Assembly (NCBI GenBank): GCA_965224245.1
Contig: OZ245046.1
Span: forward strand, 608,001-672,000
DNA length: 64,000 nt
DNA from: Candidatus Eiseniibacteriota bacterium
GTDB lineage: Bacteria; Eisenbacteria; RBG-16-71-46; CAZAMP01
Direction of reading: 5' to 3'
Shown here: positions 4,882-12,368 of the stretch, piece after piece
Layout: each line of letters begins with the position of its first letter
How positions within the stretch are numbered: position 1 is the stretch's first letter
The notes under the pieces: model-generated
What the model was told of the DNA's origin: nothing
What the model saw: the letters and a program-made list of their open reading frames with translations, nothing else
The model's database searches: none
Program-made: the position numbers and the translations under genes

Positions 4882-5440
4882 GGTTCCAGTTCTCGCCGAC
4901 GATCGGCATGTCGACGTCCACCCGGTACACGCGCCGTTCCCGGAGCCAGTGATCGAGGCGGTCGGCGTCGGGGTCCAGCCCTGCCAGCGCCCCGGCCACG
5001 CGCGGCGAGAGCAGGACCGGGTGACCGCCTCGACCCTCGAACACCGGCACGATCGCGTCGACGTCGCCGGCCGTCTCGCGCGCCTCGAGGAGTCGATCGA
5101 ACGGCGCGTCGTCCCAGAGTGGCATGTCGACGTGGTACACGAAGCTCCACACGTCGAGCGGCACGGCCGCGAGGAGCGCGATGAGCGATGCGAGCGGGGC
5201 CCGGTCCGGATCGACGGCGACCCAGGTGACGCCGGACGGCGACCCGCCGAGCGTCCGACATCGCTCGAGCCAGCCCGGCTGCACGGAGATCGCGGCCCGA
5301 AACGCCGCACGCGACGACAGGAACGTGACGTGGCGCTCGAGGAGCGATCGGCCATCGACCTCACGCCACGCCTTCGGACCGCCCGCGCGGCGGCCGTGCC
5401 CGGCCGCGAGGAGGTACACGCCGATCGGCGCCGCGCTCAC
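4871..5440 (-). CDS. MocA/MobA-like nucleotidyltransferase (molybdenum cofactor cytidylyltransferase)
   Basis: GTG 5440 overlaps the xdhC stop; LLAAGHGRRAGGPKA, HVDMP, GRGGHPVL. Confidence 0.85.
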   Translation of the reverse strand: MSAAPIGVYLLAAGHGRRAGGPKAWREVDGRSLLERHVTFLSSRAAFRAAISVQPGWLERCRTLGGSPSGVTWVAVDPDRAPLASLIALLAAVPLDVWSFVYHVDMPLWDDAPFDRLLEARETAGDVDAIVPVFEGRGGHPVLLSPRVAGALAGLDPDADRLDHWLRERRVYRVDVDMPIVGENWNLSP

Positions 5441-6372
5441 CGTCGATCCGATTCGGGGGCGCCGGTGGGTGAGTCGAGCTCGGGCGCCGTCGCGACGCCG
5501 CCGGCGTCCGATTTGCCGTCGGATGTGTGGCGTGCCCCGGCGGGATCCGCACGGACGAGGCCGTCGCGTGACGTCGCACGTGCGACCCGACCGAACGCCC
5601 ACACGTCGAGGAGCTCCGAGGCGATGGCGATCGCGATCGCCTTCGGCGACTTGCTGGGGACGGGACGCCCCATCGGGCAGTGCACGGTCTCGTCCCACGA
5701 ACGCGTGAGACGCTCGGCCATGACGGGGTCGGGGTCGGCGCCCAGCCGCGCCCGGAACACGCGGGCCTTGTGTCGCGATCCGATGACGCCCAGGTATCCG
5801 ACCGGCCGGTCGAGAAAGTGTCGGGCCAGCTCGAGATCGAGATCGTGGCTGTGCGTGAGGATGCAGACCGCGTCGCGCCGGTCCGGGCGAAGCTCGCGCG
5901 CGTACGACATGGGGTCGGCGCCGTGCACGCGGACGCCATTCGGCCACGATCGCTCGGTGGACCAGTTGGGTCGTGCGTCGATGACGTGCGGCTCGAGCGG
6001 CAGCCCGGCCAGCACCTGCATCAGCGCGCCGCCGACATGACCGCCGCCGAAGACGTGGACGCGGGCGGGACGCGGCACGTACTCGAAGAAGACCTCGGCG
6101 CGGCCACCGCAGCACTGCCGCATCTCCCGACACAGCACGTACTCCTCGACGTGGGCCGTCGGCTCGTCGGCCACGAAGAGCTCCAGCGCGTGGGCGAGGA
6201 CGCGCCGCTCGAACTCGCCGCCGCCCAGCGTACCGATCGCGCCGTCGCGGCTGACCCACATTCGCGCCCCGACCTCCTGAGGGTGATGGCCCGAGACGCG
6301 GATGATCGTGCACATGACGCCGGGGCGCGGAAGGTCGCGCCAGAAGTCACCCGCGGTCCTCGAATCCTGCAT
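5437..6372 (-). CDS. xdhC: XdhC/CoxI family xanthine dehydrogenase accessory (Moco insertion) protein
   Basis: ATG 6372 after GAGGAGGA; GTLGGGEFE, CCGG, VFGGGHVG, ILTHSHDLD, YLGVIGS, CPMG, KSPKAIAIAIASELL. Confidence 0.92.
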   Translation of the reverse strand: MQDSRTAGDFWRDLPRPGVMCTIIRVSGHHPQEVGARMWVSRDGAIGTLGGGEFERRVLAHALELFVADEPTAHVEEYVLCREMRQCCGGRAEVFFEYVPRPARVHVFGGGHVGGALMQVLAGLPLEPHVIDARPNWSTERSWPNGVRVHGADPMSYARELRPDRRDAVCILTHSHDLDLELARHFLDRPVGYLGVIGSRHKARVFRARLGADPDPVMAERLTRSWDETVHCPMGRPVPSKSPKAIAIAIASELLDVWAFGRVARATSRDGLVRADPAGARHTSDGKSDAGGVATAPELDSPTGAPESDRR

Positions 6373-6478
6373 GCCCTCGATCCTCCTCCTCGCGGCGACC
6401 CGCCGTGCACGGCGTGACGCGCGACGCCGTGGCGCGCACGATCGATCACGATCCGGCACGCGGCCGATACGCCCGGCG

Positions 6479-6532
6479 AGTATAACGCGCGACCGCGTGA
6501 TCGGGGACAACTCCTCGATGACCGTGTATAGT
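6479..6532. promoter_or_regulatory. Divergent -10 boxes for xdhC-mocA (- strand TATACT) and the deaminase (+ strand TATAGT)
   Basis: AT-rich hexamers at 6479-6484 (-) and 6527-6532 (+) in a GC-rich intergenic region. Confidence 0.5.
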
Positions 6533-6558
6533 CGATCCATGACTCGACGAGCTGCGAC

Positions 6559-7206
6559 ATGACGCCGCCGTCAGGCGACGAAGGGGGGCGCGAGTCCGTC
6601 CCTGCTTCCGGAGCCGTGTCCTCGCGCTATCCGGGGCTGACGGTCCAGCTTCCCGGCTGGGTGGATGCCGTGGTCCCGGATCTGGACCACGTGTACCCGG
6701 GCGTCGAGGAGCGCATGGGGCTCGTGATCGAGCTCTCCCGCCTGAACGTCGAGCACGGCACCGGTGGTCCGTTCGGTGCCGCGATCTTCGACATGTCCAC
6801 GCGCACGTTGATCGCACCGGGCGTGAACGTCGTCCTGCGCACACACTGGTCGGGCGGACACGCCGAGATGGTCGCGTACGCCATCGCGCAGCAGGTGCTC
6901 GGCTCGCACGACCTCGGGGGGGAGGGGCTGCCGGCGGTCGAGATCGTCAGCAGCACCGAGCCCTGCTCGATGTGTCTGGGCGCCACGCCCTGGTCGGGCG
7001 TGCGCCGGCTGGTGTGCGGCGCGCGCGACGAGGACGCGCGGGCCGTCGGCTTCGACGAGGGACCCAAGCCGGGCGCATGGGTCGCCGAGCTCGAGGTGCG
7101 GGGCATCGAGGTCGTTCGGGACGTGCTCCGCGCTCGCGCCCGCGCGGTTCTGTCCGCGTATGTGTCCGCGGGCGGCCCGATCTACAACGGCCGGCATGGC
7201 GGCTGA
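6559..7206 (+). CDS. Zinc-dependent nucleobase deaminase, NE0047-type guanine deaminase
   Basis: GGPFGAA, HAE, EPCSMC, GFDEGP and C-terminal PIYNGR resemble the cytidine-deaminase-fold guanine deaminases; adjacent to the Xdh cluster. Confidence 0.85.
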   Translation: MTPPSGDEGGRESVPASGAVSSRYPGLTVQLPGWVDAVVPDLDHVYPGVEERMGLVIELSRLNVEHGTGGPFGAAIFDMSTRTLIAPGVNVVLRTHWSGGHAEMVAYAIAQQVLGSHDLGGEGLPAVEIVSSTEPCSMCLGATPWSGVRRLVCGARDEDARAVGFDEGPKPGAWVAELEVRGIEVVRDVLRARARAVLSAYVSAGGPIYNGRHGG

Positions 7207-7278
7207 CGTCGGCGTGCCGGACCCCGGCTCCGGGCCCCACAGGATCACCCCCGGTCACCGGCCGGCGCTCGTCGACGC

Positions 7279-8658
7279 TCAGATCTGGGGCTCGTACCGC
7301 GCGGTGAAGTGCCGGAGGAACGGCGCCTGGTCGACGATCCGGTAGGCCGGCAACCGCTCCCGATCGCGATACACGTCGGTCACCACCTCGACCACGTAGT
7401 CCATGTGGCTCTGCGTGTACACGCGTCTCGGGATGGCCAGGCGCACCAGCTCCTGGGGTCCGGGGTGCTCCTCGCCGGTCTCCGGGTCGTGCCGCCCGAA
7501 CATCGCGGTCCCGATCTCGACCGCACGGAGCCCGCCCCGCACGTACAGCTCCACGCAGATCGAGATGCCCGGGAAGTCGGTCGGCGCCAGATGGGGTGCC
7601 ATGCGCGCCGCGTCGACGTAGATCGCGTGGCCGCCGGGCGGCTGGAGGATCGGGACGTCCTCGCGCGTCAGATGCTCGCCGAGGTAGCCGGTCGACGTGA
7701 TCCGGTAGTGGAGGTAGTCCTCGTGCACGACCTCCTCGAGCCCGATCGCGATCGCGTCCAGGTCGCGTCCAGCCAGTCCGCCGTAGGTCGGGAAGCCCTC
7801 GGTGAGGATCAGGAGATCGCGCTCCTGCTTGGCCACGTCAAGATCGCGCGTGGCCAGGAAGCCGCCGATGTTGGTCATGCCGTCCTTCTTGGCCGACATC
7901 GTGCATCCGTCGGCCAGGGCGCACATCTCGCGCACGATCTCGCTGACGGTTCGCTCCTCCTGACCCGGCTCACGATGCTTGATCAGGTACGCGTTCTCGG
8001 CGATGCGGCACGCATCGAGGTACAGCGGCCGTCCGTACTCCTTGCAGATCGCCGACACCTCGCGGAGGTTCGCGAGCGAGACCGGCTGCCCGCCGCCCGA
8101 GTTGTTGGTGACGGTCATCATCACCAGCGGGATGCGCTCGCGCCCGTGCTCCTCGAGCGTCCGGCGGAGCGCGGCGGTGTCCATGTTGCCCTTGAACGGC
8201 GCCGGCGTGGCCAGGTCGCGCGACTCCGCGCAGGGGAGATCCAGAGCAACGGCGCCGGTGTACTCGACGTTCGCGCGCGTGGTGTCGAAGTGCGTGTTGT
8301 TGGGGACGACGTCGCCCGGCTTGCACACCACCGAGAACAGGATGCGTTCGGCGGCCCGCCCCTGGTGCGTGGGTATGACGTACGGGAAGCCGGTGAAGTC
8401 GTGCACGGCCTTCTCGAAGCGGTAGAACGACGGGCTTCCCGCGTACGACTCGTCGCCGCGCATGATGGCGCTCCACTGGCCGGTGCTCATGGCGCCGGTC
8501 CCGCTGTCGGTCAGGAGATCGATCAGCACATCGTCCGAGTGAAGGCGAAACACGTTGAACCCGGCGGCGGCGATCTTCTCGCGGCGCTCAGCCGGGGTCG
8601 TCATCGTGAGCGGCTCCACCGTCTTGATGCGGAACGGCTCGATGATCGTCTTGTACAT
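7279..8658 (-). CDS. tnaA: Tryptophanase (PLP-dependent beta-eliminating lyase)
   Basis: EPFRIK, DLLTDSGT, THQGR, MSAKKD (PLP Lys). Specificity positions FDTT, VEIG and LRHFTA match tryptophanase rather than tyrosine phenol-lyase (FTTT, MERG, LRFFTA). Confidence 0.9.
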   Translation of the reverse strand: MYKTIIEPFRIKTVEPLTMTTPAERREKIAAAGFNVFRLHSDDVLIDLLTDSGTGAMSTGQWSAIMRGDESYAGSPSFYRFEKAVHDFTGFPYVIPTHQGRAAERILFSVVCKPGDVVPNNTHFDTTRANVEYTGAVALDLPCAESRDLATPAPFKGNMDTAALRRTLEEHGRERIPLVMMTVTNNSGGGQPVSLANLREVSAICKEYGRPLYLDACRIAENAYLIKHREPGQEERTVSEIVREMCALADGCTMSAKKDGMTNIGGFLATRDLDVAKQERDLLILTEGFPTYGGLAGRDLDAIAIGLEEVVHEDYLHYRITSTGYLGEHLTREDVPILQPPGGHAIYVDAARMAPHLAPTDFPGISICVELYVRGGLRAVEIGTAMFGRHDPETGEEHPGPQELVRLAIPRRVYTQSHMDYVVEVVTDVYRDRERLPAYRIVDQAPFLRHFTARYEPQI

Positions 8659-8973: not shown

Positions 8974-9507
8974 ATGGGGAATCAGCTGCGGGCGGTTCTG
9001 ACGTTCATCGTCCTGCTCTGGGTGATCGAGATCGTCGACCAGCTCACGGGCCGGTCGCTCGACGCGTGGGGGATCCGGCCTCGCACGCTCGAGGGTCTCC
9101 GGGGCATTCCGCTCGCTCCGTTCTTGCACGGCGGGTTCGGGCACCTCGTGGCGAACACGGGTCCGCTTCTCGTGCTCGGGCTCTTCGTCATCATGGCGGG
9201 CGTCGGCGAGTTCGTAGAGGCGACGGTGCTGATCGTGCTCCTGGGTGGGCTCGGCACGTGGCTCATCGGGCGCGGCGACGCCGTGCACATCGGGGCCAGC
9301 GGAGTCGTGTTCGGGTACGTCAGCTACCTCATCGTGCGGGGTATCCTCGTGCGGAGCTTCGCCGGCTTCACCATCGCGGTGATCGTGGCGGTGGTGTACG
9401 GCGGCCTCCTGTGGGGCGTTCTGCCCAGCCACCGCGGCGTCTCGTGGGAGGCGCACCTGTCCGGGCTCGTTGCCGGCGTGCTGGTCGCGTGGTTGAGACT
9501 GCGCTGA
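8974..9507 (+). CDS. Rhomboid family intramembrane serine protease
   Basis: Hydrophobic 177 aa; FLHGGFGHLVAN, HIGASG (Ser), SWEAHLSG (His). Confidence 0.92.
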   Translation: MGNQLRAVLTFIVLLWVIEIVDQLTGRSLDAWGIRPRTLEGLRGIPLAPFLHGGFGHLVANTGPLLVLGLFVIMAGVGEFVEATVLIVLLGGLGTWLIGRGDAVHIGASGVVFGYVSYLIVRGILVRSFAGFTIAVIVAVVYGGLLWGVLPSHRGVSWEAHLSGLVAGVLVAWLRLR

Positions 9508-9539
9508 GCGAACACCGAGACCGAGAAGGGGGAATCGAG

Positions 9540-10172
9540 ATGCGTGCTTGGACTCTCGCCTTTGGCCTGGTCGTCCCCGTGGCCGCAACGGCACAGCTCT
9601 ACGACGGCGACGCGAATCTCAACGTCTTCCTGACCGTGCCGAGCTACGCCGGCTGCAGTGAGCCCGAGTTCGAGGCTATCGACGCCGGCTCGTGTGCCGA
9701 CCTCGTGAGCGAGCCGACCGGAGGCCCGGGCTTCCTGTGGTGCGTCGCCAGCCGTGAGGGTGGCTTTCCAGACGGCATCGGCGGCATCCAGTTCGGCGTC
9801 GAGCACGATCTCGGGGCCGGATTGCCGTGGTCGCTCTGCACCGGGGGCTCGGAGATTCCCGAGCCGGGCTGGCCGGATTCGGGCACGGGCAACGCGATCA
9901 CGTGGAGCGCGGGGTGCTATCACCCGATCGGATTCGCCGCACGCATCGGGTACCTGAGCCCCGAGCCGGACGACGTGGGCATCATCGAGCTGACTCCCGA
10001 TCCGCGCATCGCGCTCGCCGTCTATGCCGACTGCTCGGCCGTCCTCTACGAGATGTGCGAGGCGAACCTGGGCAGCGCGGAGCTCGCGGACGGCACGACG
10101 CCGGTGTGCGGGGAGAACTGCGAGATCCCGATCCGGGAGACGAGCTGGGGCGCGATCAAATCTCTCTTCTGA
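9540..10172 (+). CDS. Secreted Cys-rich hypothetical protein ending ETSWGAIKSLF; paralog of 39526..40170
   Basis: ATG 9540 after AAGGGGGA; signal peptide MRAWTLAFGLVVPVAATA; shares GGxQFG, WxLCTGGSxIP..GWP..G.GNA.TW..GC with the second copy. Confidence 0.8.
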   Translation: MRAWTLAFGLVVPVAATAQLYDGDANLNVFLTVPSYAGCSEPEFEAIDAGSCADLVSEPTGGPGFLWCVASREGGFPDGIGGIQFGVEHDLGAGLPWSLCTGGSEIPEPGWPDSGTGNAITWSAGCYHPIGFAARIGYLSPEPDDVGIIELTPDPRIALAVYADCSAVLYEMCEANLGSAELADGTTPVCGENCEIPIRETSWGAIKSLF

Positions 10173-10203
10173 CGTCCGGCGACCCATTTGGGGTTTCCGG
10201 GAC

Positions 10204-10232
10204 TTGACGCGCCGCCGGCGGCCGACTAGGTT
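10204..10232 (+). promoter_or_regulatory. Sigma70-type promoter for the micro-protein/lgt pair
   Basis: TTGACG-N17-TAGGTT. Confidence 0.6.
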
Positions 10233-10308
10233 CGCGAGCGTCCGAGCGAATTCGAACGGCAGTAGGCTCGTCCCGGCACGGACGCCGGGCCAGAACTCGG
10301 AGGCTTCG

Positions 10309-10560
10309 ATGCGACGTCGCATGGCGATCAGCTCGATGATTGGCGCGCTCATCGTGGGTATGGCCTCGATCGCGAGCGCGGACACGGCGCAGTCCTCGAG
10401 CTCGAGCTCGAGCAACAGCGCGGTGAAGAGTCAGGCGACCAGCCGGACCGCAGGAGAGTCCTGCTGCCGGACGTCGGGGTCGGACAAGCTCGCGGCGCTG
10501 AGCCTCCTGCCCATCGTCGTCGCCGGAGCCGCGCGCCGGCGGATGCGCGGCCGCGACTAG
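10309..10560 (+). CDS. 83-aa exported micro-protein: signal peptide, Ser-rich linker, Cys-Cys, hydrophobic helix, RRR tail (CTERM-like)
   Basis: GGAGG 5 nt before ATG 10309; MRRRMAISSMIGALIVGMASIASA-DTAQSSSSSSSNSAVKSQATSRTAGESCCRTSGSDKLAALSLLPIVVAGAARRRMRGRD. Confidence 0.75.
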   Translation: MRRRMAISSMIGALIVGMASIASADTAQSSSSSSSNSAVKSQATSRTAGESCCRTSGSDKLAALSLLPIVVAGAARRRMRGRD

Positions 10561-10569
10561 TCACCCACC

Positions 10570-11457
10570 GTGCGCCCCGCGCTCGTCGATGCACTGGCCG
10601 GGGCGCTCGGCACCGACGCCTTCGGGTGGCTGGTGCCCACCGCGTTCATCTTCTATCCGCTCGCGATGTGCGCCGTCGCGTTTCTCTTCGTGCGGCGCAC
10701 GCGCGTGTCGGGGCTGTTCCGCTATCACGCTCTCGGTGCCGTGGTCTGGACGGGGCTCGGCGGGCTTCTCGGGTCCCGCCTTCTCTATCTCCTCCTGCAC
10801 GTCGACCAGCTTCTCGCCGAGCCCCGGATCCTCCTCGACGTGGGAGGCGCCAGCATGTCGTTCGGCGCGTACCTGGGGAGCATCGCGGGGTTCGTCGGCT
10901 ACTTCGCGCGCGAGCGCATCCCGGTGTGGCCGTACGGAGACGTGATGGCGTCCGCCATCGGCATCGGTCCGGCGATCGGACGGCTCTCGTGCTTCATGGC
11001 CGGTGACGACTTCGGAACGATCACGACCGTGCCGTGGGCGGTGACCTATCCACCGGGCAGCGACGCGTTCCACAGTCACGTCGCCCGCGGACTCCTGGAT
11101 CCCTCGAGCACCGCGTCGCTGCCGGTGCATCCGGTGCAGCTCTACCTGGCCGCGAACGGGCTCGTGCTGCTCGCCGTGTTCACGTGGCTCTGGCGGCGAG
11201 GGCGCTACCGGCCCGGCGAGCTGCTGATCGGGTACTGGGCCGCCTACGGGGCCACGCGCTTCTGCTGGGAGTTCTTCCGCGGCGATCAGGCCCGGCGTTT
11301 CGTGATGGGGCTTCCGGACGCGCAGATCATCGCGGCGGCGATCTGCCTCGCGTCGGTCGCGATCCTGATCGTGAGGCGTCGCCGCGCCGGCGGTCAGTCG
11401 CCTCCCGTCTCCGAATCGCCGTCCGCGGCCGCACCCGGCTCGGCCATCCGAACGTAG
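10570..11457 (+). CDS. Prolipoprotein diacylglyceryl transferase (Lgt) family protein, atypical paralog
   Basis: Multi-TM; GSRLLY, IGRLSCFMAGDDFG, VPWAV, VHPVQLY, YGATRFCWEFFRGD. Confidence 0.88.
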   Translation: MRPALVDALAGALGTDAFGWLVPTAFIFYPLAMCAVAFLFVRRTRVSGLFRYHALGAVVWTGLGGLLGSRLLYLLLHVDQLLAEPRILLDVGGASMSFGAYLGSIAGFVGYFARERIPVWPYGDVMASAIGIGPAIGRLSCFMAGDDFGTITTVPWAVTYPPGSDAFHSHVARGLLDPSSTASLPVHPVQLYLAANGLVLLAVFTWLWRRGRYRPGELLIGYWAAYGATRFCWEFFRGDQARRFVMGLPDAQIIAAAICLASVAILIVRRRRAGGQSPPVSESPSAAAPGSAIRT

Positions 11458-12368
11458 GTGCCGTCGAACCACACGTACCAGGTGGCGCCATCGTCCCTGG
11501 ACTGCTCGATGAACTGGCGAACGCTTCCGTCGTCGTTCGGGGTGAACGTCATCCGGAAGCGTTCGCTGGAGCCGTCTCGGGCGACGTTGGCGCCCTCGAA
11601 GTGCATTGCCCCGTCCACCAGACCACCCTGGCAGCTGATGTTGCCTCCGGCCTGATCGGTCCAGATCTGGCGCCATCGGTCGATCGCCGGATCGAAGAAG
11701 TTGATCGACTTGCCGGCGCTGCCGCTGGCCGACGTCCAGCTCTCGGTGATCACGCAGTCGCGGAGGTCCTTTCGGATCTCGTTCGTGCCGACCAGCTGAC
11801 CCGACGGGTCGTAGACGTTCCAGCGTCCCACCCAGAAGTCGAACTCGCGATAGCGCTCGTCGTACGCGCACGGCTGTGCATTCATCCGCGCGGCGTCGAG
11901 GATCCCGGGAAAGCGCTCGTGGTCGCGGATCGTGACGAGGTCGGGATCGGTCTCCAGGCGCTCGGGGTCCTGATAGCCGGCATTCACGGCGTCGACGAGC
12001 CAGACGATCGCGAGCGAGCCCATGTCCTGACGCGCGAATGCACGCGCCAGGTTGAAGCGCGTGAACGGGGGCGCGATTCCGAGCTCGTTGGCCTTCGCGA
12101 GTGCGGTGGCGGCCGACTCGTTCTCTCGGAGCTCGAGCCGCGACAGGCCGAGGCGGAGCCAGGCCAGCGCGTTCCCGGGATCCTCGTCGACGACGCGCTG
12201 GTAGGCCGCGGCGGCGTTTCGCCACTCGGCGGCCCTGAAGTGGGCGTGGGCGTCGTCGATGGGAGCCGCCTCGGGTGGGGCCGTCGTCGGTGCGAACGGA
12301 TCGACCACGGTGGCAGCGAGCGTGACGAGCAACGCCAGGAAGACGGTGCGGGCACGAAGACGGATCAC
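11394..12368 (-). CDS. Secreted TPR protein with C-terminal DUF1579-like beta-barrel domain
   Basis: Signal-like N-terminus, TPR helices, then EFDFWVGRWNV...GKSINFFDP...WRQIWTD...EQSRDDGATW. Confidence 0.75.
   Translation of the reverse strand: MIRLRARTVFLALLVTLAATVVDPFAPTTAPPEAAPIDDAHAHFRAAEWRNAAAAYQRVVDEDPGNALAWLRLGLSRLELRENESAATALAKANELGIAPPFTRFNLARAFARQDMGSLAIVWLVDAVNAGYQDPERLETDPDLVTIRDHERFPGILDAARMNAQPCAYDERYREFDFWVGRWNVYDPSGQLVGTNEIRKDLRDCVITESWTSASGSAGKSINFFDPAIDRWRQIWTDQAGGNISCQGGLVDGAMHFEGANVARDGSSERFRMTFTPNDDGSVRQFIEQSRDDGATWYVWFDGTYVRMAEPGAAADGDSETGGD

Follow-up and report, generated by a model that had tools for sequence, protein, structure and literature searches.

The window analysed in this work is a stretch of 64,000 nucleotides from contig OZ245046.1 of a Candidatus Eiseniibacteriota bacterium. 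It contains, on the forward strand, a gene for a small secreted protein (referred to as the micro-protein) and, directly behind it, a gene for a homolog of the lipid transferase Lgt (referred to as Lgt2 or the paralog). When the two genes were compared with their homologs, it was observed that the pair belongs to a cassette found in several phyla, in which the Lgt paralog stands next to a gene whose product ends in a tail made of cysteine, a hydrophobic helix and a basic cluster. The cassette represents the theme of a C-terminal sorting signal with a dedicated enzyme, here with a lipid-transferase homolog as the enzyme. The coordinates of the features, together with those of the neighbouring genes, are collected in Table 1.

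The translation of the micro-protein was inspected by eye. Residues 1 to about 24 form a signal peptide, with an n-region MRRR, a hydrophobic core and the residues ASA. These are followed by a Ser-rich linker, the residues E-S-C52-C53, a 7-residue spacer (RTSGSDK), the helix and RRR. An earlier inspection of the DNA letters (the sequence-only reading) had described this layout, with the Lgt homolog starting after a gap of 9 nucleotides, and all of it is present in the sequence. It had also placed a promoter of the form TTGACG-N17-TAGGTT in front of the gene. Both hexamers are there, but a consensus promoter scan of positions 9900–11800 returned no site, and TAGGTT agrees with TATAAT at only 3 of 6 positions.

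The GC content at third codon positions (GC3) was 0.90 in the frame of the micro-protein, compared with 0.56 and 0.68 in the other two frames and 0.87–0.91 in the neighbouring genes. A 136-nucleotide intergenic stretch had no coding-type GC3 pattern. Since the in-frame value is like that of the neighbours, and unlike that of the other frames and of the intergenic DNA, the open reading frame (ORF) looks like a genuine gene. A search for homologs of the whole 83-residue protein returned the protein itself alone. It was also considered that the micro-protein could be the end of a frameshifted cargo gene, and this was rejected on three counts. In the frame of the tail, the DNA 5' of position 10309 reads as Arg-rich junk; the micro-protein has its own Shine-Dalgarno site and signal peptide; and the upstream ORF at 9501–10172 groups with no cargo family.

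Table 1. Features of the locus and neighbouring genes, in positions of the window
Feature	Position	Strand	Remarks
Promoter-like TTGACG-N17-TAGGTT	10204–10232	+	TTGACG at 10204–10209, TAGGTT at 10227–10232; weak
Shine-Dalgarno-like GGAGG	10299–10303	+	5 nt 5' of the ATG at 10309
Gene for the 83-residue secreted micro-protein	10309–10560	+	ORF; stop codon TAG at 10558–10560
Codons of Cys52 and Cys53, proposed lipid acceptor site	10462–10467	+	C53 in at least 90% of 47 aligned tails
C-terminal membrane helix L61–A75 (with Pro68) and basic cluster R76–R78	10489–10542	+	Tail consensus LxPL...WRRR
Gene for the Lgt-family paralog Lgt2, 295 residues	10570–11457	+	GTG start; PF01790, 114.6 bits
Rhomboid-family protease gene, 177 residues	8974–9507	+	PF01694, 78.8 bits; two genes upstream of the pair, same strand
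Gene for a Cys-rich protein of about 220 residues	9501–10172	+	N-terminal signal-like segment; between the rhomboid and micro-protein genes; no Pfam or NCBIfam family
Gene for a TPR protein, 324 residues	11394–12368	-	TPR_END_plus, 38.7 bits; converges on the paralog gene, its 3' end overlapping the final 64 nt of the latter

The Lgt paralog

When the paralog was scored against the Pfam model PF01790 (LGT), the score of 114.6 bits exceeded the cut-off of 24.9, which places the protein in the family. Against the NCBIfam equivalog model TIGR00544 it scored 77.8 bits, under the cut-off of 118.9 that marks the housekeeping enzyme. An AlphaFold2 model built on 45 clade members had a mean predicted local distance difference test (pLDDT) score of 91 and a predicted template modelling (pTM) score of 0.84. 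The sole significant match of this model to a fold in the PDB was 5azb, the Lgt of Escherichia coli, with an E-value of 6.1e-9 and template modelling (TM) scores of 0.68 and 0.70.

The residues of E. coli Lgt were traced to the paralog through a profile alignment with 5azb, and their conservation was read from an alignment of 45 clade sequences (alignment A1). R143, R239, G154 and H196 of E. coli correspond to R138, R230, G149 and H187 of the window paralog; all four are kept and are invariant in the clade, as is Y192 of the paralog. E243 is kept as E234, which is at least 90% conserved in A1, and a Tyr is kept at the position of Y235. Four positions have changed: N146 has become C141, G145 has become Ser, H103 has become Phe (Trp in most clade members), and Y26 is without an equivalent, Ala being the residue aligned to it. 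The motif HPxQLY is present, the Glu after QLY is absent, and SMSFGAY stands in place of MSFHGGL of E. coli. The statements of the sequence-only reading about these motifs (the arginines, HPxQLY, SMSFGAY, Cys for Asn and the missing Glu) hold against this alignment.

That reading had also called the enzyme atypical. The changes are real, but most of them are typical of the housekeeping Lgts of the lineage. The enzymes of the relatives have the motif GR.GCFLNG(CC/DD).G, and share a Cys for Asn146, GDDYG or GCCFG, and a Tyr at the His103 position. Hence the Cys for Asn146, the GDDYG or GCCFG motif and the loss of His103 are not special to the paralog. The features specific to its clade are the segment MRPRIVxxLN...WLVPxP at the N-terminus, SW/FGAY at the site of the usual motif, and a longer periplasmic loop. 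Conservation among the other 44 clade members reaches 90% or more in 55 columns; the window paralog deviates at 5 of these, and all 5 changes are conservative. Judged from these residues, it looks intact as an enzyme.

The window genome contains three genes that match PF01790. One scores 196.5 bits and is presumably the housekeeping Lgt; another, at 125.3 bits, is a long-branched second paralog; and the third is the paralog of the window. The latter is an extra copy, and the better match elsewhere answers the earlier question of a separate housekeeping gene. The genome also has Omp85-family genes, so the source cell is diderm. In five other paralog-carrying genomes, the number of PF01790 matches was 2, 3, 2, 2 and 2, with a higher-scoring match elsewhere in each. 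At least a second Lgt match was present in all 10 of the other genomes tested. When 40 relatives of the same class were searched, the best identity to the window paralog was at most 37%.

The shared tail and its pairing with the Lgt2 clade

A large protein search with the paralog returned about 45 proteins at 40–57% identity, after which the identity dropped sharply, and 160 loci were collected from genome and metagenome scans. In many of these, the same-strand gene directly upstream ends in CxC, CxCxC or CC, followed by a Ser/Ala/Gly spacer of few residues, a helix with a conserved Pro and the form (A/M)LxxLxP(L/I), and (W/Y)RRR. The partners examined carry N-terminal signal peptides. When the window tail was aligned with those of 46 partners (alignment A2), C53 and P68 were each at least 90% conserved. 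The end of the tail ORF lies mostly between 19 nt past and 26 nt before the Lgt start. A hidden Markov model (HMM) of the tail matched 64 of the 160 loci at E ≤0.01 and 62 at E <1e-6, including loci outside the training set; at 31 housekeeping-Lgt loci, no match was obtained at E <1e-6. The neighbourhood comparison that the sequence-only reading had proposed thus found the Cys-helix-RRR tail conserved directly upstream of this Lgt clade, and across phyla.

No third gene recurs across the tail loci; a histidine phosphatase gene was seen in 11 of them and a glycerophosphodiester phosphodiesterase (GDPD) gene in 7. It may be noted that the GDPD gene (169 bits) stands near the paralog at L039:5697-6530 and in six other loci, where it could relate to a glycerol-phosphate by-product or be there by chance.

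A FastTree phylogeny of 182 Lgt-family rows was labelled for tail partners by HMM-based counts. A clade of 141 rows, Lgt2, stood apart from the housekeeping Lgts of the relatives (support 98). All 60 tail-partnered rows, which come from at least six phyla, fell inside one subclade of 70 rows (support 89). The taxa that carry the cassette include Bacteroidota, Ignavibacteriota, Calditrichota, Acidobacteriota, Methylomirabilota and others. Ten rows of the subclade had no tail; four of these are without upstream sequence and six truly lack it, so that the partner is present in 60 of the 66 rows with upstream sequence. The partner label changed 7 times on the tree, compared with a mean of 50.6 for shuffled labels, and none of 500 shuffles gave a number as low. 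When near-copies were collapsed, the partner was found in 49 of 58 clusters at 90% identity and in 31 of 39 clusters at 70%.

The window paralog falls inside an 8-row clade (support 99) with the loci L117–L123, on an end branch of 0.68, the median being 0.29. The partners in this clade end with NACCAAAG, GNCCNGG, DNCCCNGG, GCGGCG, CGGACG or GGGGGCAPE, each then followed by the helix and WRRR, and the Cys position is occupied by CC, CCC or CGGC. By their sequence, these tails are of the same class as the ESCC...RRR of the window.

The commonest partner in the loci is a secreted protein of about 800 residues. Its HExxH motif (HEFGH...NEGxAD) was present in 37 of 37 full-length members, and it has a weak PepSY match and no other family assignment. 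The cargo differs between loci: thermolysin-like proteases are one kind, and in the window's own clade it consists of BNR/sialidase-like proteins and of proteins with YYDxxNxxLKY repeats. Where upstream sequence exists for other members of that clade, as it does for 6, the upstream frames have at least 153 to 653 residues, two of them cut at a contig end. The partner in the window has no cargo and is the smallest found here. Sortase-type systems were recognised by a pattern of this kind, with one tail shared by unrelated cargo and one enzyme family beside it. A genome of the Ignavibacteriales has a protease-like cargo gene on each side of the Lgt paralog (L037:1417-3870 and 4891-7398); the two are paralogous, and each has a tail (73.5 and 45.8 bits).

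The distribution of the tail was then compared with that of the paralog. In the window genome, a tail model that included the window sequence matched the micro-protein at E 2.4e-8. With a model made without that sequence, the micro-protein ranked first of 70,160 six-frame ORF ends, at E 0.02, and the next matches were without Cys. In each of the 5 other paralog genomes there was one strong tail match (E ≤1.4e-17), adjoining the paralog; thus all 6 paralog-carrying genomes, the window genome included, have one such match at that place. Since the tail model had been built with four of these five tails and with a near-copy of the remaining one, what is informative here is the lack of further copies elsewhere in those genomes. 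No tail was found in the 40 relatives lacking the paralog, and a sample of 120 genomes, taken from the order to which one carrier belongs, yielded neither part of the cassette. Because of these results, the cassette is described as rare, scattered across phyla, and made of one enzyme and one substrate. The scan for further copies of the tail that had been suggested for the window genome gave the single occurrence next to the paralog. It had also been supposed that such an enzyme could be the missing transferase for MYXO-, Synerg- and JDVT-CTERM proteins generally; the results, for a cassette of one enzyme and one substrate, give no support to this.

Two other branches of the Lgt2 clade have partners of a different kind. 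In a 10-row sister subclade, all 9 loci that have downstream sequence show the paralog gene directly before a gene for a lipoprotein of about 415 residues with an N-terminal G-C-x-C lipobox. LLSGCECEQP and GCTCPQP are examples of this lipobox, and L158 has LLGACESC. The clade is thereby tied to cysteine pairs beside a membrane helix, which are seen at the N-terminal end of some partners and at the C-terminal end of others. At L069:3998-6120, and also at L070, L071, L073, L075, L149, L155, L157 and L160, the lipoprotein further has the motif HEAGHxxxxxH and a near-threshold 'choice-of-anchor Z' match. In a basal clade of 17 rows, mostly Acidobacteriota, the gene before that of the paralog encodes a large protein whose C-terminus has one Cys, a helix and RPRK; this was seen in 14 rows by the first labels, and in L188.

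Comparison with known systems

The paralog shares with E. coli Lgt (PDB 5AZB/5AZC) the Pfam family, the seven-helix fold and the equivalents of R143 and R239, E243, G154, H196 and Y235. It differs in being an extra copy that scores below the equivalog cut-off, and in its link, which is with a C-terminal tail and not with the N-terminal lipoboxes of the proteome. It also differs in its own N-terminal segment (MRPRIVxxLN...WLVPxP), in SW/FGAY for FHGG and in the Cys for N146.

The MYXO-CTERM signal of Myxococcota, with its peptidase MrtX, resembles the cassette in its tripartite C-terminal signal, its conserved Cys (often two), the N-terminal signal peptide of the protein and the proposed lipidation of Cys. 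The window tail likewise has the layout of Cys, helix and basic cluster at the extreme C-terminus of a signal-peptide protein. It could then be argued that the tail is an ordinary signal of MYXO-CTERM type, recognised by a myxosortase or a rhomboid, and that the Lgt gene is an unrelated neighbour. Of the 47 tails, 25 match the MYXO-CTERM model TIGR03901.2 at E ≤1 (best 3.5e-7), and a rhomboid gene lies two genes upstream of the micro-protein. We consider this explanation very improbable. The window tail itself had no match to TIGR03901.2 at E ≤1, and when 10 tails were inspected against the 20-bit cut-off of this model, 6 scored 12.8–17.0 bits and 4 gave no match. In MYXO-CTERM, the helix region has no Pro and the signal occurs 3–73 times per genome, according to section 13 of Haft 2023; the cassette helix has a conserved Pro, and there is one substrate per genome. 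The myxosortase core model NF040914 (cut-off 100 bits) was exceeded in none of 5 genomes, the best score being 32.5 bits, and control genomes also had none over the cut-off. Further, the dedicated neighbour in the cassette is a lipid-transferase homolog and not a peptidase, it is also found outside Myxococcota, and its adjacency to the tail recurs in the 49 of 58 clusters given above. Membership of MYXO-CTERM was therefore rejected on the score, the Pro in the helix, the single substrate and the lack of a myxosortase over the cut-off. The rhomboid at 8974–9507 was rejected as a sorting peptidase as well, since it scored 28 bits against the 84-bit cut-off of the rhombosortase model TIGR03902 and was not found in the homologous loci.

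The JDVT-CTERM system, with its enzyme MrtJ, shows another likeness: one sorting enzyme stands beside a single target with a Cys tail, and the system is sporadic across lineages (PMC11980579). MrtJ is a CPBP endopeptidase, whereas the enzyme here is an Lgt-family protein, and 2 of the 47 tails match the JDVT-CTERM model at E ≤1. The window tail gave no match to the GlyGly-CTERM model.

No model in Pfam or NCBIfam was found to describe the pair of tail and Lgt. In the literature, no paper was found in which a C-terminal tail is paired with a paralog of Lgt, the supplementary tables of Haft 2023, which lay outside the search, being a place where such tails might be listed. The Haft preprint contains no occurrence of the word Lgt. 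In a myxosortase paper of 2025, the enzyme that lipidates Cys is called 'an unknown enzyme', with the housekeeping Lgt as the leading guess.

Proposed lipidation of the tail and the alternatives

We propose that the cassette consists of a substrate gene followed by the gene of its own lipid transferase, and that the paralog probably transfers diacylglycerol onto the cysteine or cysteines of the tail. The micro-protein would be exported through the Sec pathway by its N-terminal signal peptide, and the C-terminal helix would then hold the precursor in the inner membrane with RRR in the cytoplasm. With this topology, Cys52 and Cys53 would face the periplasm about 7 residues from the membrane, next to an acceptor helix whose predicted polarity is opposite to that of a signal peptide. 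The co-translated paralog would move the diacylglyceryl group of phosphatidylglycerol to one or both thiols, and glycerol-1-phosphate would be released as by canonical Lgt. The product would be a protein that is lipid-anchored at its C-terminal end. In most relatives, the cassette would in this way anchor a large secreted enzyme; in the window, where cargo is absent, it would yield a short Ser-rich lipopeptide, or a peptide anchored by lipid plus helix.

The cassette would then be a minimal two-gene system for the lipidation of C-terminal cysteines by an Lgt-type enzyme. If this is true, it would provide a class of enzyme whose existence has long been assumed for C-terminal sorting signals with Cys, and a new way of anchoring proteins to bacterial surfaces, and it would widen the known substrate range of Lgt, an antibiotic target.

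When the complex of enzyme and tail was modelled, as had been suggested by the sequence-only reading, a score of 0.33 was obtained, compared with 0.00 for the best of 3 controls, and this was graded as 'weak support'. The runs shared at least 45% of contacts, with a pLDDT of at least 53 for the partner. Calibration on 80 solved complexes and 110 mismatched pairs had brought 58 of the former and 2 of the latter to the mark; scores of 0.60 or below included only 7 of the 80 solved complexes and both of the mismatches.

Several observations weigh against the proposed lipidation or its reach. The complex score is a weak pass, of a height at which, by the calibration, passes are often wrong. Y26, G145, N146 and H103, which are essential in E. 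coli Lgt, are all replaced in the paralog. The polarity of the acceptor is reversed, and its Cys lies 7–12 residues from the helix and not at its end. A conserved peptidase was not found in the neighbourhood of the homologous loci. The window partner is a cargo-less singleton without homologs, and its tail reaches only E 0.02 when its own sequence is left out of the model. A 50-row sister group includes 40 rows, the named ones all Gemmatimonadota, without a visible cis partner; together with the 6 partnerless rows within the tail subclade, these indicate that the wider clade is not always tied to a tail. In genomes with a paralog of this 40-row group, another Lgt-family match scores higher and is presumably the housekeeping enzyme. 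Finally, in the Acidobacteriaceae genome G050 (L095), no PF01790 match scores above the tail-linked Lgt, and the only other one is a piece of 29.5 bits. Therefore, the enzyme of the basal clade may not be an extra copy. The gene in question (C8:66759-67463, 148 bits) is linked to a single-Cys tail and is possibly the only full Lgt of that genome, unless part of the assembly is missing.

The replaced residues could mean that the pairing of tail and enzyme is real and the chemistry different. The paralog might use another lipid donor or nucleophile, or add a second lipid beside that of the housekeeping Lgt, or it might be a non-catalytic receptor or chaperone that holds the tail helix. According to Mao et al. 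2016 and a 2026 mBio study, Y26, H103, R143, N146, G154 and R239 are essential in E. coli, H103 being 'poorly conserved'. A different chemistry would also suit the G-C-x-C partners, the first Cys of which belongs to a normal lipobox and could be modified there by the housekeeping Lgt, as well as the GDPD gene near the paralog in 7 loci. We regard it as unlikely, because the paralog retains the complete fold along with E243, Y235, G154 and the arginine pair, the last two of these being invariant in the clade, and because the housekeeping Lgts of the relatives, which are presumably active, have the same Cys and lack the His. A separate concern is that the cassette could be a relic in this genome. 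The cargo domain would then have been deleted, leaving signal peptide, linker and tail, and the micro-protein, perhaps with the paralog, would be without purpose. In the window's clade, the 6 other members for which upstream sequence exists all have the longer frames described above and no micro-protein; the 83-residue protein has no homologs; and the end branch of the window Lgt is long. Against decay, both frames are open, the micro-protein gene retains its Shine-Dalgarno site and signal peptide, and its GC3 of 0.90 is of the coding type. The few changes of the enzyme at conserved columns (5 of 55) are conservative, and the Cys, the Pro and RRR of the tail are kept. On balance, it is quite unlikely that the cassette is a relic.

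The full reading is that the Lgt2 clade comprises C-terminal cysteine lipid transferases acting on helices of reversed polarity, and that here an 83-residue precursor becomes a cargo-free, Ser-rich diacylglyceryl lipopeptide. We put its probability at roughly 0.4, and it is offered as tentative. As for the earlier proposal of a dedicated Lgt for a Cys-CTERM peptide, the pairing of tail and enzyme is supported by the homologous loci, but the small cargo-less ORF is not conserved among them, being a singleton that could be a relic.

In the loci without a visible partner, a tiny Cys-bearing ORF upstream of the paralog was found in a single case, L090 (3700–3901), from a member of the Gemmatimonadaceae. 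This ORF lies just 5' of the paralog and ends in a signal-like helix followed by AGVQACCGSDGYSAPESTAE; it may be a tiny lipoprotein with a CC lipobox. The second Lgt paralog of the window genome, of the GCLLAGCCYG type and on a very long branch, lies at L002 (G000:C1:5972024-5975746, ORFs 862–1407 and 1420–2262). It follows a 181-residue ORF with a lipobox-like HHAC signal and the C-terminal residues HSGCWNEHGCP, and the two may be another enzyme-partner pair.

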